Shown piece by piece: positions 4,115 through 35,669 of a stretch of 64,000 nt of DNA. How positions within the stretch are numbered: position 1 is the stretch's first letter; each line of letters starts with the position of its first letter. The notes below the pieces were generated by a model. That model was not told where the DNA came from and did not search any database. It worked only from the letters and a program-made list of their open reading frames with translations. This stretch comes from a virus. The stretch is from positions 23,528-87,527 of the IMG/VR virus record IMGVR_UViG_3300046454_000714; one strand, written 5' to 3'. A program made the translations under genes and the position numbers.

Positions 4115-4348
4115 ATGTCTCCGTTCGTCCTGTCCGACGCCGATCTGGCCGTCACGACCCAGCTGGCCGCGCGCCGTCGGGAGCGCACCACGGTCGCGGA
4201 TGCGTTCACCGAGTTGTTCGGCGACGACTTCACCCGCGCCCTGTACCGGGAGACCACGTATGCGGTGCCGGATTCGGAGCGGCAGACGTGCCCGGTGCAC
4301 CAGGACTGGCGGATGGACTGCCAGCACCTGCACCTGAAGGCCGCCTGA
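4115..4348 (+). CDS. Hypothetical protein with C-terminal CPVH...C..H motif
   Basis: GAAAGGGA RBS. Confidence 0.7.
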   Translation: MSPFVLSDADLAVTTQLAARRRERTTVADAFTELFGDDFTRALYRETTYAVPDSERQTCPVHQDWRMDCQHLHLKAA

Positions 4349-4500
4349 TGTCCGGCCGGAAGCGCGACGACGCGCCGCCGAAGCCCCCGCCGACGCCCGA
4401 CCCCGCCGCAGTCGCCCGCGCCAAGCGTGAAGCGGACGCCCTGCGCACGACAGCCCGGGAGCTGCCGGAGATCGACCCCGCCGACGCCAAGTACTGGTAG
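4348..4500 (+). CDS. Hypothetical 50-aa protein
   Basis: TGATG coupling. Confidence 0.55.
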   Translation: MSGRKRDDAPPKPPPTPDPAAVARAKREADALRTTARELPEIDPADAKYW

Positions 4501-22924: not shown

Positions 22925-24424
22925 ATGACGACCTTCACCGACGACTTCAACAGGGCCGACGGAAGCCCAGGCGCCAACTGGACTGCCGTGTCCGGCACCT
23001 GGTCGATCGTCTCCAACCAGCTCTCCTCGGGGTCCGCAGGCGGCACCATCGTCATCCGCGCGACCGGCGCAATGGCCACCAACGACAACAGCACACAGAT
23101 CACGATCGCTGCGACCGCAGCGCTCAGTCACGGCGTGTTCTGCCGCGGTAACACGGGCTTCACGCAGGGCTATCTGTGGCGCAACGACGGCACGAGCTGG
23201 AACCTCTTCTCGAACGTGGGCGGCAGCTTCACCTCCATCGGCTCCTTCGCCGGAGCAGCCGTCGCAGGCGACATCGCCAAGGTCCAGGCGATCGGATCGA
23301 CGATCACCGGCTACGTCAACGGCGTCGCCCGCGTCACCGTCACCAACACGGCCGTCACCACCGGTACGACCGTCGGCATTCGCGCCGAGTCGAGCAACTC
23401 GCTGAGGTTCGACAACTTCACCGGCGCTGACGCCACCTCCGGAGTCTCCGGCGATGCGGCACTGGCTGCCACCGCCACGCTCTCCGCAACCGGCACCCGC
23501 TCCACCAGTGGTGACGCGGCCCTGGCCTCCACCGCAGCCTTCACCGCGGCGGGCGTGCGGTCCACCACTGCCGACGCAGCCCTCAACACGACGGCCACCC
23601 TGGCCGCTTCGGGAATCCGTACCACAGCAGGCGATGCGGCACTCACGGCCACAGCCAGCCTCACCGCATCCGGGGTGCGCACCACCAGTGGCGACAGCGG
23701 ACTGACCGCCACGGCCAGCCTCACCGCCAGCGGAACCCGCTCGACATCCACCGGCGCGGCCCTCGCCGCAACGGCAGCCCTGACTGCGAGCGGAGCCGTA
23801 ACCACCAACGGCGACGCCGCCCTTGCAGCGACGGCAACCCTGACCGCCGCCGGGCAGCGGACGACGGCCGGCGATACCGCCCTCACCGCCACCGCATCGT
23901 TCACGGCGGACGGGCAGCGCACCACTACCGCCGACGCGGGCCTCGCAGCCACCGCCTCCCTATCCGCGAGTGGCACCCGCAGCGCCGCGGCCGACGCCAG
24001 CCTCGCCGCAACGGCAGACCTGACCGCGCAGGGACAGGTCACCCACAATGCTGCCGCCGCCCTCGCAGCCACAGCCACCTTCACGGCCGACGGAAGCATC
24101 GGCGCGGCGCCAGTCGCCGGGGACGCCGCCCTGAACGCGGCGGCCACCTTCACTGCGGCCGGTATCCGGACGGCATCTGCGGCAGCCAGCCTCACCGTGA
24201 CCGCGGCACTCACCGCAGCAGGCACCACGACGCTCGCAGGCACGGCAGGCATTGCCGTCACGGCCACGCTCACAGCGAGCGGGACAGTGCAGTCCGCCCA
24301 CGACGACATCGACGTCACCGTTGGCGCTCCCTACAGCCCGTGGTCCGTCGGTGCTCCGCAGCGTGAGGCGTGGCCCGTGGCCGAACCGCAGCACGCACCC
24401 TGGCTCGTCGGCCAACCCCAGTGA
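22925..24424 (+). CDS. Fibre-like protein: N-terminal lectin-like beta domain plus 14 x 20-aa Ala/Thr repeats
   Basis: FTDDFNRADG...LRFDNFTG followed by GDAALAATATLTAxG repeats. Confidence 0.75.
   Translation: MTTFTDDFNRADGSPGANWTAVSGTWSIVSNQLSSGSAGGTIVIRATGAMATNDNSTQITIAATAALSHGVFCRGNTGFTQGYLWRNDGTSWNLFSNVGGSFTSIGSFAGAAVAGDIAKVQAIGSTITGYVNGVARVTVTNTAVTTGTTVGIRAESSNSLRFDNFTGADATSGVSGDAALAATATLSATGTRSTSGDAALASTAAFTAAGVRSTTADAALNTTATLAASGIRTTAGDAALTATASLTASGVRTTSGDSGLTATASLTASGTRSTSTGAALAATAALTASGAVTTNGDAALAATATLTAAGQRTTAGDTALTATASFTADGQRTTTADAGLAATASLSASGTRSAAADASLAATADLTAQGQVTHNAAAALAATATFTADGSIGAAPVAGDAALNAAATFTAAGIRTASAAASLTVTAALTAAGTTTLAGTAGIAVTATLTASGTVQSAHDDIDVTVGAPYSPWSVGAPQREAWPVAEPQHAPWLVGQPQ
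23447..24295 (+). repeat. Degenerate 60-bp tandem coding repeat, about 14 units
   Basis: SGDAALAATATLSATGTRST / SGDAALASTAAFTAAGVRST / ... Confidence 0.85.
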
Positions 24425-29947: not shown

Positions 29948-31333
29948 ATGGCCCTCGATCTGGAACCGGATGCCTGGTTGAAGCGGCTGATCCACTGCCA
30001 TGACGGTGACCTGCCGCAGTTGAGGCTGATGGACAGCTACTACGAGGGCACGCAGCCTCTGTCGTATTTGGCTCCGGAGATTCAGTCGGAACTCTCGGAC
30101 CGGATGCGCCAACTGGTCATCAACTGGCCGCAGTTGGTCGTGGATGCCTTGGATGAGCGTCTGGACGTCGAGGGCTTCCGGTACGCGGACTCCGAGACGA
30201 CCGCGGCGGATCTGTGGGACGTGTGGCAGGCCTCCGACATGGACGAGGGTTCGCAGCAGGCCCACGTGGATGCTCTGGCCCTGAAACGCTCCTACGTGAT
30301 CATCGGCGCGAATGAGGACGACGAGGCGAACCCGATCGTGACCGCGGAGTCGGCGCTGGAGGTGTTCGCGGAGAGGGATCCGCGGACTCGCCAGGTGGTG
30401 GCGGCGGTGAAGCGTTGGGATGAGCCGTCGGCGGCCGGGTCGGCGCCGGTGAAGTGGGCGACGCTGTATCTGCCGAATGCGCGGATGACGTTCGAGCAGC
30501 AGAAGGGCGCTTGGGTCGAGGTCGACCGGGATGAGCACAACCTCGGCGAGGTGCTGGTTGTTCCGTTGGCGAACCGGCCGCGACTGCGGCACCTGGATGG
30601 CACGTCCGAACTCCGCTCGGTCATCCCGATCTCGGACGCGGCCTGCAAGATCGCCTCGGACATGATGGTCAGCGCGGAGTATCACGCGATGCCGCGCCGG
30701 TGGGCGACGGGCATGTCGCGTGACGACTTCGCCGACGAGAACGGGCAACCGCTGGGCGCGATGTCGGCGCTGGCAGGCCGCATGTGGACGAACGAGAGCA
30801 ACGAGGTGAAGTTCGGGCAGTTCCAGGAGGCCCAGCTCTCCAACTTCCACGAAACGATCAACGTTCTCGCCCGCCTGGTGGCCGCGATCACGGGCCTGCC
30901 TCCCGCATTCCTCGGCCTGGCGACGGATCAGCCTCCGTCTGCGGATGCGATCCGCGCGTCGGAGGCCCGCCTGGTGAAGCGCGCGGAGCGCCGTCAGCGT
31001 GCGTTCGGCGAAGCCTGGGAGCGGGTCATGCGCCTCGTTCTCCTGGTGCGGGACGGCGAGTTGGACCCGCGGACCCGCAAGCTCGAAACCGTGTGGCGGG
31101 ATCCGTCGACGCCGACGTTCGCGCAGAAGGCCGACGCGGTCGTCAAGCTGCACGCCTCCGGCATTCTGCCGACGGAGCAGGCGTGGGAGGACTTGGGCTA
31201 CAGCGCAGTGCAGCGGGCCCGGATGCGGGGCATGCAGGACGATGCCCTGACCCGGATGACGGCCATGGACCTGCACCAGATGTCGACAGCCCAGGATCCG
31301 GCGCCCGTTGAGGCGCCTCCCGTCGGCGGCTGA
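29948..31333 (+). CDS. Portal protein (SPP1 gp6-like)
   Basis: YYEGTQPL...NWPQLVVDALDERL...SADAIRASEARLVKRAERRQRAFGEAWE. Confidence 0.95.
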   Translation: MALDLEPDAWLKRLIHCHDGDLPQLRLMDSYYEGTQPLSYLAPEIQSELSDRMRQLVINWPQLVVDALDERLDVEGFRYADSETTAADLWDVWQASDMDEGSQQAHVDALALKRSYVIIGANEDDEANPIVTAESALEVFAERDPRTRQVVAAVKRWDEPSAAGSAPVKWATLYLPNARMTFEQQKGAWVEVDRDEHNLGEVLVVPLANRPRLRHLDGTSELRSVIPISDAACKIASDMMVSAEYHAMPRRWATGMSRDDFADENGQPLGAMSALAGRMWTNESNEVKFGQFQEAQLSNFHETINVLARLVAAITGLPPAFLGLATDQPPSADAIRASEARLVKRAERRQRAFGEAWERVMRLVLLVRDGELDPRTRKLETVWRDPSTPTFAQKADAVVKLHASGILPTEQAWEDLGYSAVQRARMRGMQDDALTRMTAMDLHQMSTAQDPAPVEAPPVGG

Positions 31334-31335
31334 TC

Positions 31336-33327
31336 GTGGCCGTCGAGACGCAGGCGCACCAGGACATCATCGACGCCTATGGCCGGTCTCAGCAGCGGGC
31401 TGTCATCCAGACGACGGTGACGCTGCAGCGGCTGTGGAAGGAGCTTGCGGCCACGGATCTCTCACGGTCGTGGCTCGGGGGTCTGGGTGCGGCGATGGTG
31501 CGGGCCGTGTCGGCCGGCCAGTTGGTGGCGGCGTCGACGGGCCAGAAGTACATCGAGGCGATGGTCCGCGGGGATGGGCTGGGCAACAACTACATGGAGC
31601 AGGCGTCGCATGTCGACGCCCGCTCGTTCTCGGGTGCCGCGTCGGACGGCCGGGCGCTGGACAGCCTGCTGTATCTGCCGGTGATTCGCACGAAGACGCT
31701 GATCGGTAACGGGCTGACGTTGCAGGAGGCGATGCTCGGCGGCAGGGCCCAGCTCTTGCAGGTGGCCGCTTCGGAGGTCGCGGATGCGGGCCGTGGTGCG
31801 GCCAGTGTGTCGATGATCGCGAACCGGTCGGTGACGGGCTACGTGCGGACTGTCCGCTCGGGGGCCTGTGCGCGGTGCGCGATTCTCGCTGGCCGCTGGT
31901 ACCGGTGGAATGCCGACTTCGAACGGCACAAGAGGTGCTTCCCCGCCGGTGTCGTCGTGTCAGGCCCGCGCACGCTGGCGGCCACGCGGCGGCGGTATGA
32001 GGGGGAACTCGTCATCCTCACGACGGCGAGTGGCCAGGAGCTCCCCGCCACCGGCAATCACCCGATACTGACGCGACGCGGCTGGGTCGCTGCCAATCTC
32101 ATCCAGGAAGGCGACGAGGTAGTCCGCAGCCTCCGGCCGGAGGGCGCTGCGCCCCTCGTAGTCCCAGATCATCAGCAGATGCCATCCCGCATCGAGGATG
32201 TATGGGCTACGGAGAGCGTGGCGGGCGTGCTTCGCGGCGTGCCAACCACCGCCGAGGATTTCCACGGCGACGGAGGCCACGGCGAAGTCGACGTTGTAGG
32301 GCCCAACCGCTTTCTGTGGGGTGAAGTCGAGGCAGCGCTCGCGCAGCATCTGGGCGAAGAGGTCCTCACCGTCGGAGCGTTGGGCTCGATCGGCATTCCG
32401 CTCTCGGCTCAGCGCGGCCACTTTGAGCGTGTCACCGGAGATCGGTTTGCCGCGGACGGCGTCATGGGCGGCCTGCGTGATCCTGGCCCGCTCCTCGGGG
32501 CTGGCCTTGGACATGCGCAGGGCATTGGCTTCAGCGCGGTCGCGGAGATGCGTCCCGGCCTGCTTGAGGTGGCGCCGCACGACGCCTCGCATGACGCCAT
32601 AGCGGATGGATATGGACTGTTCGCTCTCTCCGCTCTCGTAGGCGGCAACGAGTTCAGCGGTGGGGAGATCTATGGCGCAGGGCCGCGGTGGGATGCCGCG
32701 GGCCTGGCGGGCTCGATGGAAGACGCTGAGCGAGATGCCCGAGTTGGCCGCGAGCTCCTTGAGCGGCTCGCCGGACAGGTAGAGCTCGATCGCGTGGTCG
32801 AGGCGCGCAGGGTCAGTTGGTCCGGGCATGTGTATGACCTCAATTCGACAGAGGGCTGGTTCAACGCGAACGGCCTAATCGTATCTAACTGTCAGTGCTA
32901 CGGGGTGCCAGCTACAGAGGCTCGCCCGGGCCGTCACACGAACCCGATGTCGTTCTTTCAGGGTCTGTCGCGCGCGGAGCAGGATCGCCGGTTCACGATC
33001 GGCGGCGCGGAGGCGATCCGGAACGGCGCCGACATCTACTCGGTGGTGAACGCGGGCCGTTCGACGATCACGCTGGACGCCTACGGCAAGAAGGTCGTGG
33101 CGACGCTCGAAGGCACGACGAAGCGCGGCGCGTTCTACCAGCAGATGCTGCGTGAGGCCGAGCAGCGCACCGGGCAGAGGTTCGCCCGGAACGGCTACGA
33201 CCTGGAGCGTGGCCTGCCCCGCTTTCACCTGCGGACGCCACGGCTCACGCCCGGCGAGATCCTGCGTCTCTCGGATGACCGTAACGAGCTGATCCGCCTG
33301 CTACGGCGTTTCGGCTACCTGTCGTAG
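31336..33327 (+). CDS. MuF-like minor capsid / head morphogenesis protein containing an intein
   Basis: GACARCAILAG...FERHKR|intein|CQCYGVP; located after the portal gene. Confidence 0.88.
   Translation: MAVETQAHQDIIDAYGRSQQRAVIQTTVTLQRLWKELAATDLSRSWLGGLGAAMVRAVSAGQLVAASTGQKYIEAMVRGDGLGNNYMEQASHVDARSFSGAASDGRALDSLLYLPVIRTKTLIGNGLTLQEAMLGGRAQLLQVAASEVADAGRGAASVSMIANRSVTGYVRTVRSGACARCAILAGRWYRWNADFERHKRCFPAGVVVSGPRTLAATRRRYEGELVILTTASGQELPATGNHPILTRRGWVAANLIQEGDEVVRSLRPEGAAPLVVPDHQQMPSRIEDVWATESVAGVLRGVPTTAEDFHGDGGHGEVDVVGPNRFLWGEVEAALAQHLGEEVLTVGALGSIGIPLSAQRGHFERVTGDRFAADGVMGGLRDPGPLLGAGLGHAQGIGFSAVAEMRPGLLEVAPHDASHDAIADGYGLFALSALVGGNEFSGGEIYGAGPRWDAAGLAGSMEDAERDARVGRELLERLAGQVELDRVVEARRVSWSGHVYDLNSTEGWFNANGLIVSNCQCYGVPATEARPGRHTNPMSFFQGLSRAEQDRRFTIGGAEAIRNGADIYSVVNAGRSTITLDAYGKKVVATLEGTTKRGAFYQQMLREAEQRTGQRFARNGYDLERGLPRFHLRTPRLTPGEILRLSDDRNELIRLLRRFGYLS
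31936..32889 (+). mobile_element. Intein (318 aa, C201 to N518; +1 residue Cys)
   Basis: Block A CFPAG; block B ATGNHPILT; block F VYDL; block G NGLIVSN/C. Confidence 0.9.
31960..32829 (-). CDS. Antisense HTH plus DUF559/Vsr-like PD-(D/E)xK endonuclease nested inside the intein
   Basis: AIELYLSGEPLKELAA, AYESGESEQSISIRYGV (HTH); SDGEDLFAQMLRER...FTPQKAVGPYNVDFAV..VAVEILGGGWH...AGWHLLMIW. Confidence 0.85.
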   Translation of the reverse strand: MPGPTDPARLDHAIELYLSGEPLKELAANSGISLSVFHRARQARGIPPRPCAIDLPTAELVAAYESGESEQSISIRYGVMRGVVRRHLKQAGTHLRDRAEANALRMSKASPEERARITQAAHDAVRGKPISGDTLKVAALSRERNADRAQRSDGEDLFAQMLRERCLDFTPQKAVGPYNVDFAVASVAVEILGGGWHAAKHARHALRSPYILDAGWHLLMIWDYEGRSALRPEAADYLVAFLDEIGSDPAASRQYRVIAGGGELLATRRREDDEFPLIPPPRGRQRARA

Positions 33328-33406
33328 CCCGCAGGCCGCCGCATCACGACCCAAGTTTGGCCGCGCGCAAGGCGCGGTCTCTGATCCCGCAATGGGAGTT
33401 CCATCC

Positions 33407-34147
33407 ATGAGTGCGACTCGTACCCGCTGGCTGCCCGCTGCTCAGAGCGTGGGCTGGTTCCGGCTCAACCGTCACGAAGACCCCGACCCCGCCGACCCGG
33501 AGCCTGCTCCGGACCCGGCAGCCGATCCGGCAGATCCGGATCCCGAGCCTGACCCGGCAGGCGACCCGGCGGACCCCGAGCCTGATCCGGAGCCTGAAGG
33601 CGCGGACAAACTCGGCGATGAGGGCAAGAAGGCTCTCGACCGGATGAAGGCCGAGCGTGCCGCGGCCAAGAAGACTGCCGCTGCCGAGAAGAAGCGCGCC
33701 GACGACCTTGCACGCAAGGTGCAGGAGTTCGAGGACGCGCAGAAGTCTGAGGCGGAAAAGCTCGCGGCGAAGGTCGAACGGTCTGCCCAGCGGGAGGCCA
33801 AGGCGACCGCGCGTGCCGTGGCGGCCGAAGTGCGGGCCGCGGCCGGCGAGTTCGCCGACCCGGGCGACGCCGTGGATGTGCTGATGCGCGACCCCAGCCA
33901 GTACGTCGACGCGGACGGCGAGATCGACATGGACGCCATCGAGACGGCCCTGACGGATCTGCTGGGCCGGAAGCCGCACTGGAAGAAGCCTGAGCCGGCC
34001 GCCCCGGTGGTTGAGCCGAAGCAGAAGCTGAAGCCGGATCCGGGCCAGGGCTCGCGTGGCGCTCCGGCTCCCGTGGACTACCGCACCGCCTCGAAGGAAG
34101 AGGTCGCTGCGGAGCTCGGCAAATTCGGCTACCGGCAGCGCGTGTGA
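33407..34147 (+). CDS. Head scaffolding protein
   Basis: D/P/E-rich N-terminus; LGDEGKKALDRMKAER coiled coil; PDPGQGSRG. Confidence 0.9.
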   Translation: MSATRTRWLPAAQSVGWFRLNRHEDPDPADPEPAPDPAADPADPDPEPDPAGDPADPEPDPEPEGADKLGDEGKKALDRMKAERAAAKKTAAAEKKRADDLARKVQEFEDAQKSEAEKLAAKVERSAQREAKATARAVAAEVRAAAGEFADPGDAVDVLMRDPSQYVDADGEIDMDAIETALTDLLGRKPHWKKPEPAAPVVEPKQKLKPDPGQGSRGAPAPVDYRTASKEEVAAELGKFGYRQRV

Positions 34148-34335
34148 TCACGGTCCGGGCCCGGTTGGGCGGCGGACGCACCTCGATTGAGGTGTCCGGT
34201 CACGACGAGCCTGCTGCTGGGGGTCGCGTCTGCGCCGCCGTGACGGCCATCACCCAAACCGCGCTGCTGGGCCTGGATCAGTACGCCCAGCAGTACCCGG
34301 ACCAAGTGTCCATAGAGATCATCACTGAGGAGTGA
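34144..34335 (+). CDS. Prp-family (DUF464-like) cysteine protease, minimal 63 aa
   Basis: IEVSGH...VCAAVTAITQT...QYP: His20/Cys30 dyad. Confidence 0.82.
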   Translation: MITVRARLGGGRTSIEVSGHDEPAAGGRVCAAVTAITQTALLGLDQYAQQYPDQVSIEIITEE

Positions 34336-34337
34336 GA

Positions 34338-35669
34338 ATGACCCCCACCATGTCCGCGGTTCGCCCGCGGCTCCACCGCGCCCCGCGGCCGTGGTTCAAG
34401 CTGGACCGGCACGCCGGTGTCCGGCCGTCCCTGCCCGCCGGCATCCAGGCGATGCTGCAGAACGGCATCCTCGACCGTGTCTTCCGCGACGCGCTGGTGC
34501 CGAACTTCCTGTTCCCTCAGATCGCAGACGCTGAGCCGTGGATGGGCGGGCTGGGCGACACGAAGACGTTCACCCGCAAGGGTCTGCTCGCCCCGGTGAC
34601 GACTCCGGTGACGGGTTCGGACCCGTCGGCGGCGACGTACAGCATCGAGCAGTGGTCCGTGACGATGGACCAGTACGCGAACTCGATGGACACCAACATG
34701 CTCGGCTCGGCGATGGCGCTGGCCAGCAAGTTCCTGGCGGACGTCGAGAACCTGGGCATCAACGCCGGGCAGACCATCAACCAGGTGGCCCGCAACAAGC
34801 TGTACAAGGCGTATGCGGGCGGCCGGACCTGGGTGACCACGGCCGGCTCCTCGGACACGTCGATGATCGTCAACTCGACGGACGGCTTCACCACCGTCAT
34901 GGTCAACGGCGTCCCGACCGCCGTGTCCGCGTCGAACCCGCTGACCGTGTCGGTCGCGGGTGTCGCGAACACGGTGACCGGCGTCAACACCGGCACCAGC
35001 ACGCTGACCCTGGGCACCGCCCGGGTGGATGTCGCCGGTGACTACGTGACCGCGGCGAACGCCCCGGTCTCGGTCCGGGCGACCGGTAACTCGCCCTACG
35101 ACCTGTCGTCGTCGAACGTCGTGACGTTCGCGAACTTCCGGGCCGCGGTGGCGCGTCTGCGGAAGATGGCGGTTCCGACGGTGGGCGGCTACTACGTCGC
35201 CCACATCGACCCGGACACGGAGGCGCAGCTTTTCGCGGACGCCGACTTCAAGCAGGCCCTTCAGGGCCGCGTGGACTCGCCGATCTACACGGAGCTGTCC
35301 ATTGGCCGGTTCGCGGGCATCGACTGGGTGCGCAACCTGGAGGCGCCGACCATCACCAACGGCGGCTCTGCGGGCACCCTGACGGTGCACCGGCCGATCG
35401 TGCTGGGTGCGAACGCGCTGATGTCGGCGCCGTTCGAGGGCACCAACACCCTTCTCGCCGGTACCGGCGTCGAGGACGTGCCGGAGATCCGCACCATCAA
35501 CGCCGCCCCCGGTGTGGACGTCACCCTGCTGGTGCGCCCGGCGCAGGACCGGCTGCAGCAGGTCATCGCCTCGACCTGGTCGTGGGTCGGCGACTACGGC
35601 GTTCCGTCGGACGCGGGCACGGGCGACGCGGCGCTGTACAAGCGCGGCGTCGTCATCGAGCACGCCTGA
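34338..35669 (+). CDS. Major capsid protein
   Basis: Position after the scaffold gene, size, LGINAGQTINQVARNKLY...YVAHIDP...YKRGVVIEHA. Confidence 0.9.
   Translation: MTPTMSAVRPRLHRAPRPWFKLDRHAGVRPSLPAGIQAMLQNGILDRVFRDALVPNFLFPQIADAEPWMGGLGDTKTFTRKGLLAPVTTPVTGSDPSAATYSIEQWSVTMDQYANSMDTNMLGSAMALASKFLADVENLGINAGQTINQVARNKLYKAYAGGRTWVTTAGSSDTSMIVNSTDGFTTVMVNGVPTAVSASNPLTVSVAGVANTVTGVNTGTSTLTLGTARVDVAGDYVTAANAPVSVRATGNSPYDLSSSNVVTFANFRAAVARLRKMAVPTVGGYYVAHIDPDTEAQLFADADFKQALQGRVDSPIYTELSIGRFAGIDWVRNLEAPTITNGGSAGTLTVHRPIVLGANALMSAPFEGTNTLLAGTGVEDVPEIRTINAAPGVDVTLLVRPAQDRLQQVIASTWSWVGDYGVPSDAGTGDAALYKRGVVIEHA

Follow-up and report, generated by a model that had tools for sequence, protein, structure and literature searches.

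Background

Prp (YsxB; PF04327; MEROPS C108) is a cysteine protease whose fold has been pursued as an antibiotic target and which, to our knowledge, has so far been studied almost only as a ribosomal enzyme of Firmicutes hosts. The full-length enzyme has its substrate groove at the dimer interface. In Staphylococcus aureus, Prp cleaves the Phe/Ala bond of K-L-N-L-Q-F-F↓A in ribosomal protein L27 (the arrow marks the bond cut) and a like site in the capsid and scaffold proteins of bacteriophage 80alpha, with 13 and 14 residues removed (PMC5744158). Within the substrate, Leu at P4 and P6 lies at the dimer interface, the P1 Phe stacks against His22 and a small residue follows at P1' (PMC9405229); the P3 Gln bonds with Gly29 and Asp31 (PMC9261936). 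Here we describe a putative Prp-family protease of 63 amino acids (aa), little more than half the usual length, whose gene lies between the scaffold and capsid genes of a Streptomyces-type phage, both of which begin with a common leader tag. It is found in a 64,000-nucleotide stretch (the window; positions 23,528 to 87,527 of IMG/VR virus record IMGVR_UViG_3300046454_000714), part of an 87.5-kb virus record with a CheckV completeness of 93%.

A phage cysteine protease that acts on a capsid protein has a precedent in pneumococcal phage Cp-1, whose protease (MEROPS clan CR, the clan that also holds C108) removes an N-terminal extension of about 40 residues from the major capsid protein (PMC9405229). 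The comparison with Cp-1 is by description, and that description (PMC9405229) makes no mention of a half-size form or of a tag common to the scaffold. Prp, its use by 80alpha and the phage-encoded clan-CR capsid protease of Cp-1 are thus already known, and individual members of the present family already carry labels, 'protease' for gp6 of Streptomyces phage Kromp and Prp for prophage copies named by PGAP. A literature search found nothing on short phage-encoded Prp forms or on a W-F-x-L-x-R-H tag. We conclude, at a probability of roughly two in three, that the phage makes a half-size Prp which removes the leaders of its own scaffold and capsid proteins, most likely by cutting after a His. Family membership and conservation are read from the sequences; the catalysis, the scissile bond and the oligomeric assembly we infer.

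Results

A half-size Prp-family gene between scaffold and capsid

Among cultured phages Kromp is the closest; the three genes concerned are 70% identical to its own at the nucleotide level, over 98% of their length. These genes and their key features lie as follows in the window (E, expectation value).

33392-34147, + strand: head scaffolding protein gene (phrog_4708, E 5e-24; syntenic with Kromp gp5, 'scaffolding protein')
33455-33475, + strand: scaffold leader tag W-F-R-L-N-R-H (proposed P7-P1), with the proposed cut before Glu at 33476
34144-34335, + strand: putative half-size Prp-family cysteine protease gene, 63 aa (PF04327 match), between the scaffold and capsid genes
34201-34203, + strand: codon of His20, G-H motif, proposed catalytic histidine (invariant; aligns with GH of Streptococcus mutans and S. 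pneumoniae Prp)
34231-34233, + strand: codon of Cys30, C-A-A-V-T/S motif, proposed nucleophile (invariant; aligns with VCAAVS of solved Prp chains)
34332-35669, + strand: major capsid protein gene (phrog_1357 major head protein, E 1.1e-24; syntenic with Kromp gp7)
34392-34412, + strand: capsid leader tag W-F-K-L-D-R-H (proposed P7-P1), with the proposed mature N-terminus AGVRPSLPAG... from 34413

An earlier inspection of the letters without database searches (the sequence-only reading) had pointed to a 63-aa SGH...VCAAV protein at this place, and profile searches bear it out. The open reading frame (ORF) at 34144-34335, in which residues 18-20 read SGH and residues 29-33 read VCAAV, scores 30.0 bits against PF04327 (Peptidase_Prp; cut-off 27) over profile positions 1-56 of 90; in a six-frame genome search the same ORF scores 26.6 bits, slightly below the cut-off. 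It also matches phrog_4478, 'peptidase'. His20 and Cys30 align with the GH and VCAAVS of the Prp structures 2g0i and 2idl, and the C-terminal ...YPDxVS(I/V)E... of the short form agrees with the C-terminus of full-length Prp. The protein is therefore of the same family as S. aureus Prp, with its G-H ... C-A-A-V-S motif, but it is encoded by the phage instead of by the host.

Starts and stops are packed closely. The ORF tool begins the scaffold at ATG 33392, although ATG 33407, preceded by GGGAG, is the likelier start; the leader would then span some 23-28 aa. For the capsid the tool chose GTG 34332, and ATG 34338, 5 nt past a GAGGAG, is likelier, giving a leader of about 25 aa. Because the GTG start of the 63-aa ORF overlaps the scaffold stop (GTGTGA), and its own stop sits between the GAGGAG and the capsid ATG at 34338, the layout suggests that translation of the three genes may be coupled. 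The capsid protein scores 50.8 bits against TIGR04387 (N4-gp56 family), under the cut-off of 60.

Kromp gp6 (MH744420, AYD81607.1) is the orthologue: 62 aa, 64.5% identical, 29.6 bits against PF04327, and encoded between gp5 and gp7, both of which are tagged (WFQLTRH and WFRLDRH). Its name, 'protease', is an annotation label only, and a literature search turned up neither an analysis of the protein nor cleavage data for it. Kromp has been used as a control phage in published work; it can be grown on both S. coelicolor and S. lividans, and CsCl-purified phage has been obtained (10.1101/2025.09.03.674096).

Conservation and spread were followed in 124 loci, comprising the window, Kromp, 80 viral contigs (kept from 128 relatives returned by a pattern scan of IMG/VR) and 42 actinobacterial genome contigs. 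The last come from a pattern scan of one-genome-per-species contigs that returned 61 relatives, 19 of them full-length Prp of Firmicutes-type genomes; the actinobacterial carriers include Streptomyces, Kitasatospora, Nonomuraea, Microbispora, Actinoallomurus, Kribbella, Glycomyces, Phytomonospora and others. A short Prp gene is present in all 124 loci, down to 56% identity, and its length hardly varies: 62 aa in 92 loci, 63 in 17, 64 in 11 and 65 in three, with one copy cut by the edge of its locus. A search of 5.8 billion clustered proteins returned 70 homologues, all of 56-64 aa; those with names come from Streptomyces or Kitasatospora and are labelled Prp/YsxB by NCBI or JGI. In a tblastn search of 50,697 records of isolated phages, the ORF matched Kromp alone; with a low-GC short form (P0097) as query, the only matches were Kromp and a single unannotated fragment of a Listeria phage.

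Neither His20 nor Cys30 varies in 27 close homologues (alignment A1), and they are the sole invariant columns across 52 diverse short forms (alignment A7); the close homologues also retain the Cys-Ala-x-Val-Ser/Thr turn. The median ratio of nonsynonymous to synonymous substitution rates (dN/dS, Nei-Gojobori) is 0.27 over 4508 sequence pairs. A gene that has an invariant His/Cys pair and is under purifying selection agrees, as far as sequences can tell, with the proposal that the phage carries its own Prp-family gene. One further relative, locus L303 (2046-2413), has a frameshift that breaks the gene exactly at the G-H codons, with its capsid tag intact; by its sequence this would be either a sequencing error or a recent pseudogene.

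A common leader tag on scaffold and capsid

The pattern WF.L.RH has exactly two matches in six frames of the 64-kb window, WFRLNRH in the scaffold leader and WFKLDRH in the capsid leader, and none in 200 residue shuffles. These are the two places (33455-33475 and 34392-34412) at which matching leader motifs had been claimed. The two copies have 16 of 21 nt in common and differ, by eye, at synonymous third positions, so the tag is conserved at the level of the peptide. A nucleotide-level repeat is ruled out as its origin on the same grounds.

Across the loci the tag is found on 107 of the 108 capsid leaders in view, the other (L088) reading WFQADRH, and on 106 of 116 scaffolds. The 10 scaffold misses were not individually inspected; six look cut at the locus edge (L013, L030, L037, L079, L085, L108), and the other four look like a wrong long frame picked by the script (L025, L095, L109, L121). 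Both genes are in view in 106 loci, and both are tagged in 95 of these. That both head proteins carry the tag agrees with the sequence-only reading. Loci ascertained through the capsid instead of the protease give a like picture, with the tag in 74 of 74 and the protease gene just upstream in 69 of 70, the frameshifted L303 being the exception; this set of 80 loci (in L302 the capsid N-terminus is out of view) consists of sequences all at least 69% identical, many from the same contigs as L003-L082, and is not independent of the first.

Position by position, the tag was tabulated from 53 distinct capsid and 71 distinct scaffold 14-mers (n = 124), with the caution that the search pattern partly fixed the table, allowing F or L at P6, six residues at P4 and H, F or Y at P1. 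Within that frame, P7 is Trp in 117 of 124, P6 Phe in 124, P4 Leu in 117 and P2 Arg in 124; P1 is His in 120 and Phe in the other four. P5 is variable, as is P3 (D, N, T, G, A or S). The motif proposed by the sequence-only reading, WF(R/K)L(N/D)RH, therefore holds in its core and not at P5 and P3, and W-F-x-L-x-R-H describes the family better. P1' is Asp, Ala, Glu or one of a few others, often Asp or Glu. Scaffold and capsid agree as far as P1 and diverge beyond it, the scaffold into an acidic Pro-rich tract and the capsid into (A)GVR or DVRS and a conserved N-arm.

The four P1 Phe residues, Phe being the canonical Prp P1, belong to scaffolds of Nonomuraea and Microbispora prophages (L112, L115, L116, L117). 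The scaffold tag there reads W-L-F-D-L-x-R-F, and the capsid tag of the same loci keeps His, as W-A-F-x-L-D-R-H. A Streptomyces prophage (L109, about 4190-4360) has tandem capsid-leader tags, WFRLDRH and then, 29 residues on, WFDLGRH.

Comparison with the canonical Prp site

Aligned with L-N-L-Q-F-F↓A, the phage tag F-x-L-x-R-H↓D falls in register: P6 is Phe, P4 is Leu and P1 carries a ring, these being the three positions whose contacts in Prp are given above (PMC9405229). P6 and P4 are hydrophobic, and the common part ends at the proposed cut. The canonical P3 Gln and P1 Phe are absent, P3 being D, N, T, G, A or S and P1 being His in 120 of 124. As in 80alpha, a short N-terminal leader on both scaffold and capsid ends in a common motif; removal has been shown in 80alpha (PMC5744158) and is predicted here. 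The register with the known Prp site agrees with the predicted cut after His, which would leave a capsid beginning AGVRPS..., the bond itself being an inferred one.

The site had also been called private to the phage. It is indeed distinct at P1-P3 (His, Arg and a residue other than Gln, often with Asp or Glu at P1'), but it is not unrelated to the canonical site, of which it is a diverged form. The enzyme differs in a matching place. Full-length forms have x-D three residues before the Cys, the loop Asp that is Asp31 in S. aureus Prp; the actinophage forms read G-G-R-V-C, with a two-residue gap there. Loss of the loop Asp and loss of the P3 Gln would make a coherent pair, seen in one clade only; the pairing was compared over two clades, and in the Firmicutes-type clade the Asp was set by construction of the search pattern.

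Hosts and other proteases

In the host genomes searched, neither a Prp outside the prophage nor a long L27 was found. PF04327 occurs only inside the prophage locus in five of five genomes, and L27 is an 86-codon open frame in three of three; in the one genome where it was read, L27 starts MAHKKGASS, 45 nt past rplU, with no gene between rplU and rpmA. Unlike S. aureus, then, these hosts have no Prp and a short L27. NCBI names the 62-64 aa prophage copies (L083-L124) 'ribosomal-processing cysteine protease Prp'. As to role this name is probably wrong, since the family scores at most 23 bits against NCBIfam cut-offs of at least 133, and since the hosts have a short L27.

The four classical prohead protease profiles, PF04586 (S78), PF00574 (ClpP), PF01343 (S49) and PF03420 (S77), gave no match at E ≤ 1 in the 87.5-kb record, which rules out such a protease elsewhere in it. 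Kromp gp4 (L001 3866-4882), annotated 'capsid maturation protease', has VG15 as its sole Pfam match, a weak one, and searches of NCBIfam and of PDB sequences returned none. By its matches this gene family looks like a MuF/VG15-type minor head protein, whose protease labels (in Kromp and in phrog_1522) come without a detectable protease domain.

An internal deletion makes the protein short

S. aureus Prp has about 105 aa, the phage forms 62-65, and the difference lies inside the fold. A profile of the 27 close homologues matches S. mutans Prp (2g0i) at E 0.0054 in two pieces: query residues 14-45 on chain residues 49-82 (GH, loop, Cys and helix 1; GH..VCAAVS) and query residues 39-61 on chain residues 122-144 (the end of helix 2 together with the final strand). 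Both pieces include the query stretch 'tALLGLe'. When seven short and nine full-length forms are aligned, a single internal gap of about 45 residues opens between the helix 1 'LLGLxxxA' and 'xQYPxxV', and full-length forms have a second 'LGLxxIA' right before the end of the gap region. From the two-piece match and the single gap we read the short form as Prp minus strand-strand-helix, that is minus two strands and a helix, with two alike helices merged. This is what the sequence-only reading had proposed in saying that the helices appear collapsed into one (TALLGL). An exhaustive profile search of 1.84 billion representatives returned 725 matches at E ≤ 1e-3; 43 of the best 150 are at most 85 aa (a few of them fragments), and the remainder of these 150 are mostly 100-120 aa and matched in two pieces. 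AlphaFold2 predicts two strands (3-9 and 12-18), one long helix (28-50) and a C-terminal tail without structure, with a predicted local distance difference test score (pLDDT) of 78 from the close alignment and 93.7 from the diverse one.

A wider phage module in Firmicutes-type contigs

When IMG/VR was scanned with a pattern taken from low-GC short forms, Prp genes turned up in at least 429 viral stretches; 80 of these stretches were kept (loci L147-L226). In these, 57 forms are long (about 95-111 aa), 20 are short (one merely cut by the locus edge, leaving about 19 loci with forms of 62-70 aa) and three form one chain with the scaffold. Of the 76 loci with at least 900 nt downstream in view, 65 have a downstream site that fits hydrophobic-x-hydrophobic-Q-x-F-(A/N/S/T/G), and in 54 of the 76 there are two such sites, spaced like the starts of scaffold and capsid. 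By class, the canonical site accompanies 15 of 19 short, 47 of 54 long and all three fused forms. Sites beside short forms include W-M-F-N-I-Q-R-F↓S-E-G-G and W-T-F-R-M-Q-R-F↓N-D-G-G, which already have the upstream Trp and the Arg at P2.

The actinophage loci are like these in having a Prp-family gene in the head module and a common motif on two head genes. They differ in that the Firmicutes-type loci keep a near-canonical site with P3 Gln and P1 Phe, as well as the loop Asp (the latter by construction of the search pattern), and in gene order, the Firmicutes-type protease lying upstream of the scaffold and the actinophage protease between scaffold and capsid. Judged by sequence, the actinophage system is a diverged offshoot of a phage arrangement that is common and, it seems, undescribed, because Firmicutes-type contigs hold Prp genes beside near-canonical leader sites. 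We found no published account of phage Prp genes of the L147-L226 type.

Two variants of the arrangement stand apart. In L173, L174 (3501-4712) and L197 (7-1290) the Prp domain is fused in frame to the scaffold, giving proteins of 403-428 aa with a canonical site between the parts (FDLQLF↓G, MELQLF↓A) and a second site on the next gene; such a fusion looks like a self-releasing protease-scaffold polyprotein. In L162, L163, L168 and L171 (GC 0.33-0.37) a short Prp of 62-73 aa lies between ORFs of 530-740 aa and 150-170 aa, with no visible head module, and no leader site was found downstream.

Discussion

Proposed mechanism and its alternatives

The product of the 63-aa ORF would be a minimal cysteine endopeptidase of the Prp family, a phage enzyme translated along with scaffold and capsid. 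It would recognise W-F-x-L-x-R-H at the N-terminus of both proteins and remove the leader, most likely by cutting after the P1 His, so that the scaffold would begin EDPDP... and the capsid AGVRPS...; the bond is placed by register with the S. aureus site. The half-size chains would assemble into dimers or larger oligomers and so rebuild the substrate groove. Specificity would have shifted alongside loss of the loop Asp, with P1 moving from Phe to His, P2 becoming Arg and P3 no longer Gln.

Several observations weigh against this proposal. The window ORF misses the NCBIfam Prp equivalogs NF011128, NF011129 and NF011131 widely, at 23, 18.5 and 13.2 bits against cut-offs of 133-225. It has no loop Asp, and in S. 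aureus the substitution D31A is inactive (PMC9261936). Full-length Prp, of about 90-115 residues, has the topology strand-strand-helix-strand-strand-helix-strand (PMC9405229). Some 45 fold residues of this, two strands and a helix, are absent here, and for that reason a monomer cannot form the known Prp groove. Structural comparison gives weak scores. With VIA-align over 48161 chains, the solved Prp chains 1s12, 2idl, 4peo and 2g0i take ranks 1-4 for model 1 (Z 4.5, 4.5, 4.1 and 3.8), and solved Prp chains take ranks 1-3 and 6 for model 2 (Z 4.7, 4.5, 4.3 and 3.9; root-mean-square deviation 2.2-2.7 over 51-59 residues), in both cases tied with unrelated rows. The aligner, moreover, puts the model on the C-terminal half of Prp and not on the catalytic half, a placement which hints that the two halves of Prp may be alike. 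Foldseek gave no match at E ≤ 0.001 for either model; 1s12 and 2g0i/2g0j appear for model 1 at E 3.8-9.2 only, and for the better model no Prp chain is among the 50 matches listed. Since Foldseek gave none, a possible likeness of fold is carried by the VIA-align ranks only. There is also no capsid relative without the protease gene to act as a negative control, all those fetched (at least 69% identical) carrying the gene; the capsid-ascertained loci do not supply one because they overlap the first set and are all that similar. Finally, 80alpha can do without Prp cleavage of its capsid and scaffold proteins, whereas it requires the scaffold leader itself (PMC5744158), and by that precedent the tag could serve assembly rather than cutting.

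It is rather unlikely that some other enzyme, the MuF/VG15-like protein or a host protease, cuts the leaders, or that none does, the tag serving as a signal for targeting or assembly and the small ORF having another role. Such an account can point to the phrog_1522 match of the neighbouring gene, 'head maturation protease' at E 1e-69, to the annotation of Kromp gp4, and to cleavage in this phage group being a prediction only. But Kromp gp4 is without a protease domain by Pfam, NCBIfam and PDB sequence search, its distant intein-bearing counterpart is a Phage_Mu_F protein, and the virus record has no S78, ClpP, S49 or S77 match; the tag, for its part, is in register with the Prp site, shows the canonical P1 Phe in four scaffolds, and has a Prp-family gene wedged between its two bearers in every locus.

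Quite unlikely, too, is a pseudo-protease that does no cutting and acts as a leader-binding assembly chaperone, holding the N-termini of scaffold and capsid during procapsid assembly. The missing loop Asp, whose loss inactivates the S. aureus enzyme (PMC9261936), the missing 45 or so fold residues and the 80alpha scaffold leader, required for assembly although its cleavage is not (PMC5744158), would all suit it. Against it, the sole invariant columns in 52 diverse short forms are His20 and Cys30, and the Cys-Ala-x-Val-Ser/Thr turn is kept, when a pure binder needs no catalytic pair; and the Asp-bearing short forms of other phages adjoin canonical cleavage sites.

That the ORF is a truncated or frameshifted Prp remnant, or a chance frame in GC-rich DNA with a coincidental motif pair, is very improbable, for although the profile match is limited to positions 1-56 of 90 and the relative L303 is frameshifted, the protein keeps 62-65 aa throughout the 124 loci down to 56% identity, ends in the ...YPDxVS(I/V)E... 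of full-length Prp and has a median dN/dS of 0.27, and the motif appears 0 times in 200 shuffles. The conserved length rules out a truncation or frameshift artefact as far as sequence analysis can.

Returning to the half-size protease, how such a chain might work admits a more speculative suggestion, which we offer tentatively and hold to be doubtful. The protein may be a single strand-strand-helix(-strand) Prp unit that works only as an oligomer, two chains making one Prp body and four the groove-forming dimer, with specificity re-tuned together with the substrates. Short and long forms might interconvert by unequal recombination between the alike 'LGLxxIA' helices, and Prp may therefore perhaps have arisen by duplication of such a half. 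Were the oligomer-only suggestion true, these would be among the smallest endopeptidase chains of which we are aware.

Significance

Should the enzyme prove active, phages and prophages of Streptomyces, Kitasatospora, Nonomuraea and their relatives, a large group represented here by 128 viral contigs and 42 contigs of actinobacterial genomes, would rely on a phage-borne Prp-type protease to mature their heads. The short form would offer a natural minimal version of the Prp cysteine protease fold, and a site that differs at P1-P3 would give direct access to the way Prp recognises its substrate. For annotation, the 'ribosomal-processing' names of prophage copies would be misnomers as to role, and the label 'capsid maturation protease' on the MuF-like gene stands without a detectable protease domain.

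Neighbouring genes and an intein

By ORF layout and by Pfam and phrog matches, the + strand from 29.9 to 35.7 kb of the window is a phage head module. Upstream of the scaffold it contains two further genes.

29948-31333, + strand: portal gene (SPP1_portal, E 3e-49)
31336-33327, + strand: MuF/VG15-like minor head protein gene, interrupted by an intein (Pfam VG15, weak; Intein_splicing; phrog_1522 'head maturation protease', E 1e-69)

The intein occupies 31936-32889 of the MuF-like gene, and its endonuclease lies on the opposite strand: a minus-strand ORF at 31960-32829 (289 aa) has HTH_58 and DUF559 matches above the Pfam cut-offs, and GC by codon position favours the minus frame. Both frames of the intein region are open in seven related loci and in a contig of GC 0.47 (L206), in which the plus ORF combines Phage_Mu_F (39.4 bits) with an intein and is a distant counterpart of the MuF-like gene. 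The closest relatives (L004-L009) are without the intein. This opposite-strand layout has been described as 'anti-sense VSR-like HEN' in minor capsid proteins (bioRxiv 10.1101/2025.01.02.630785).

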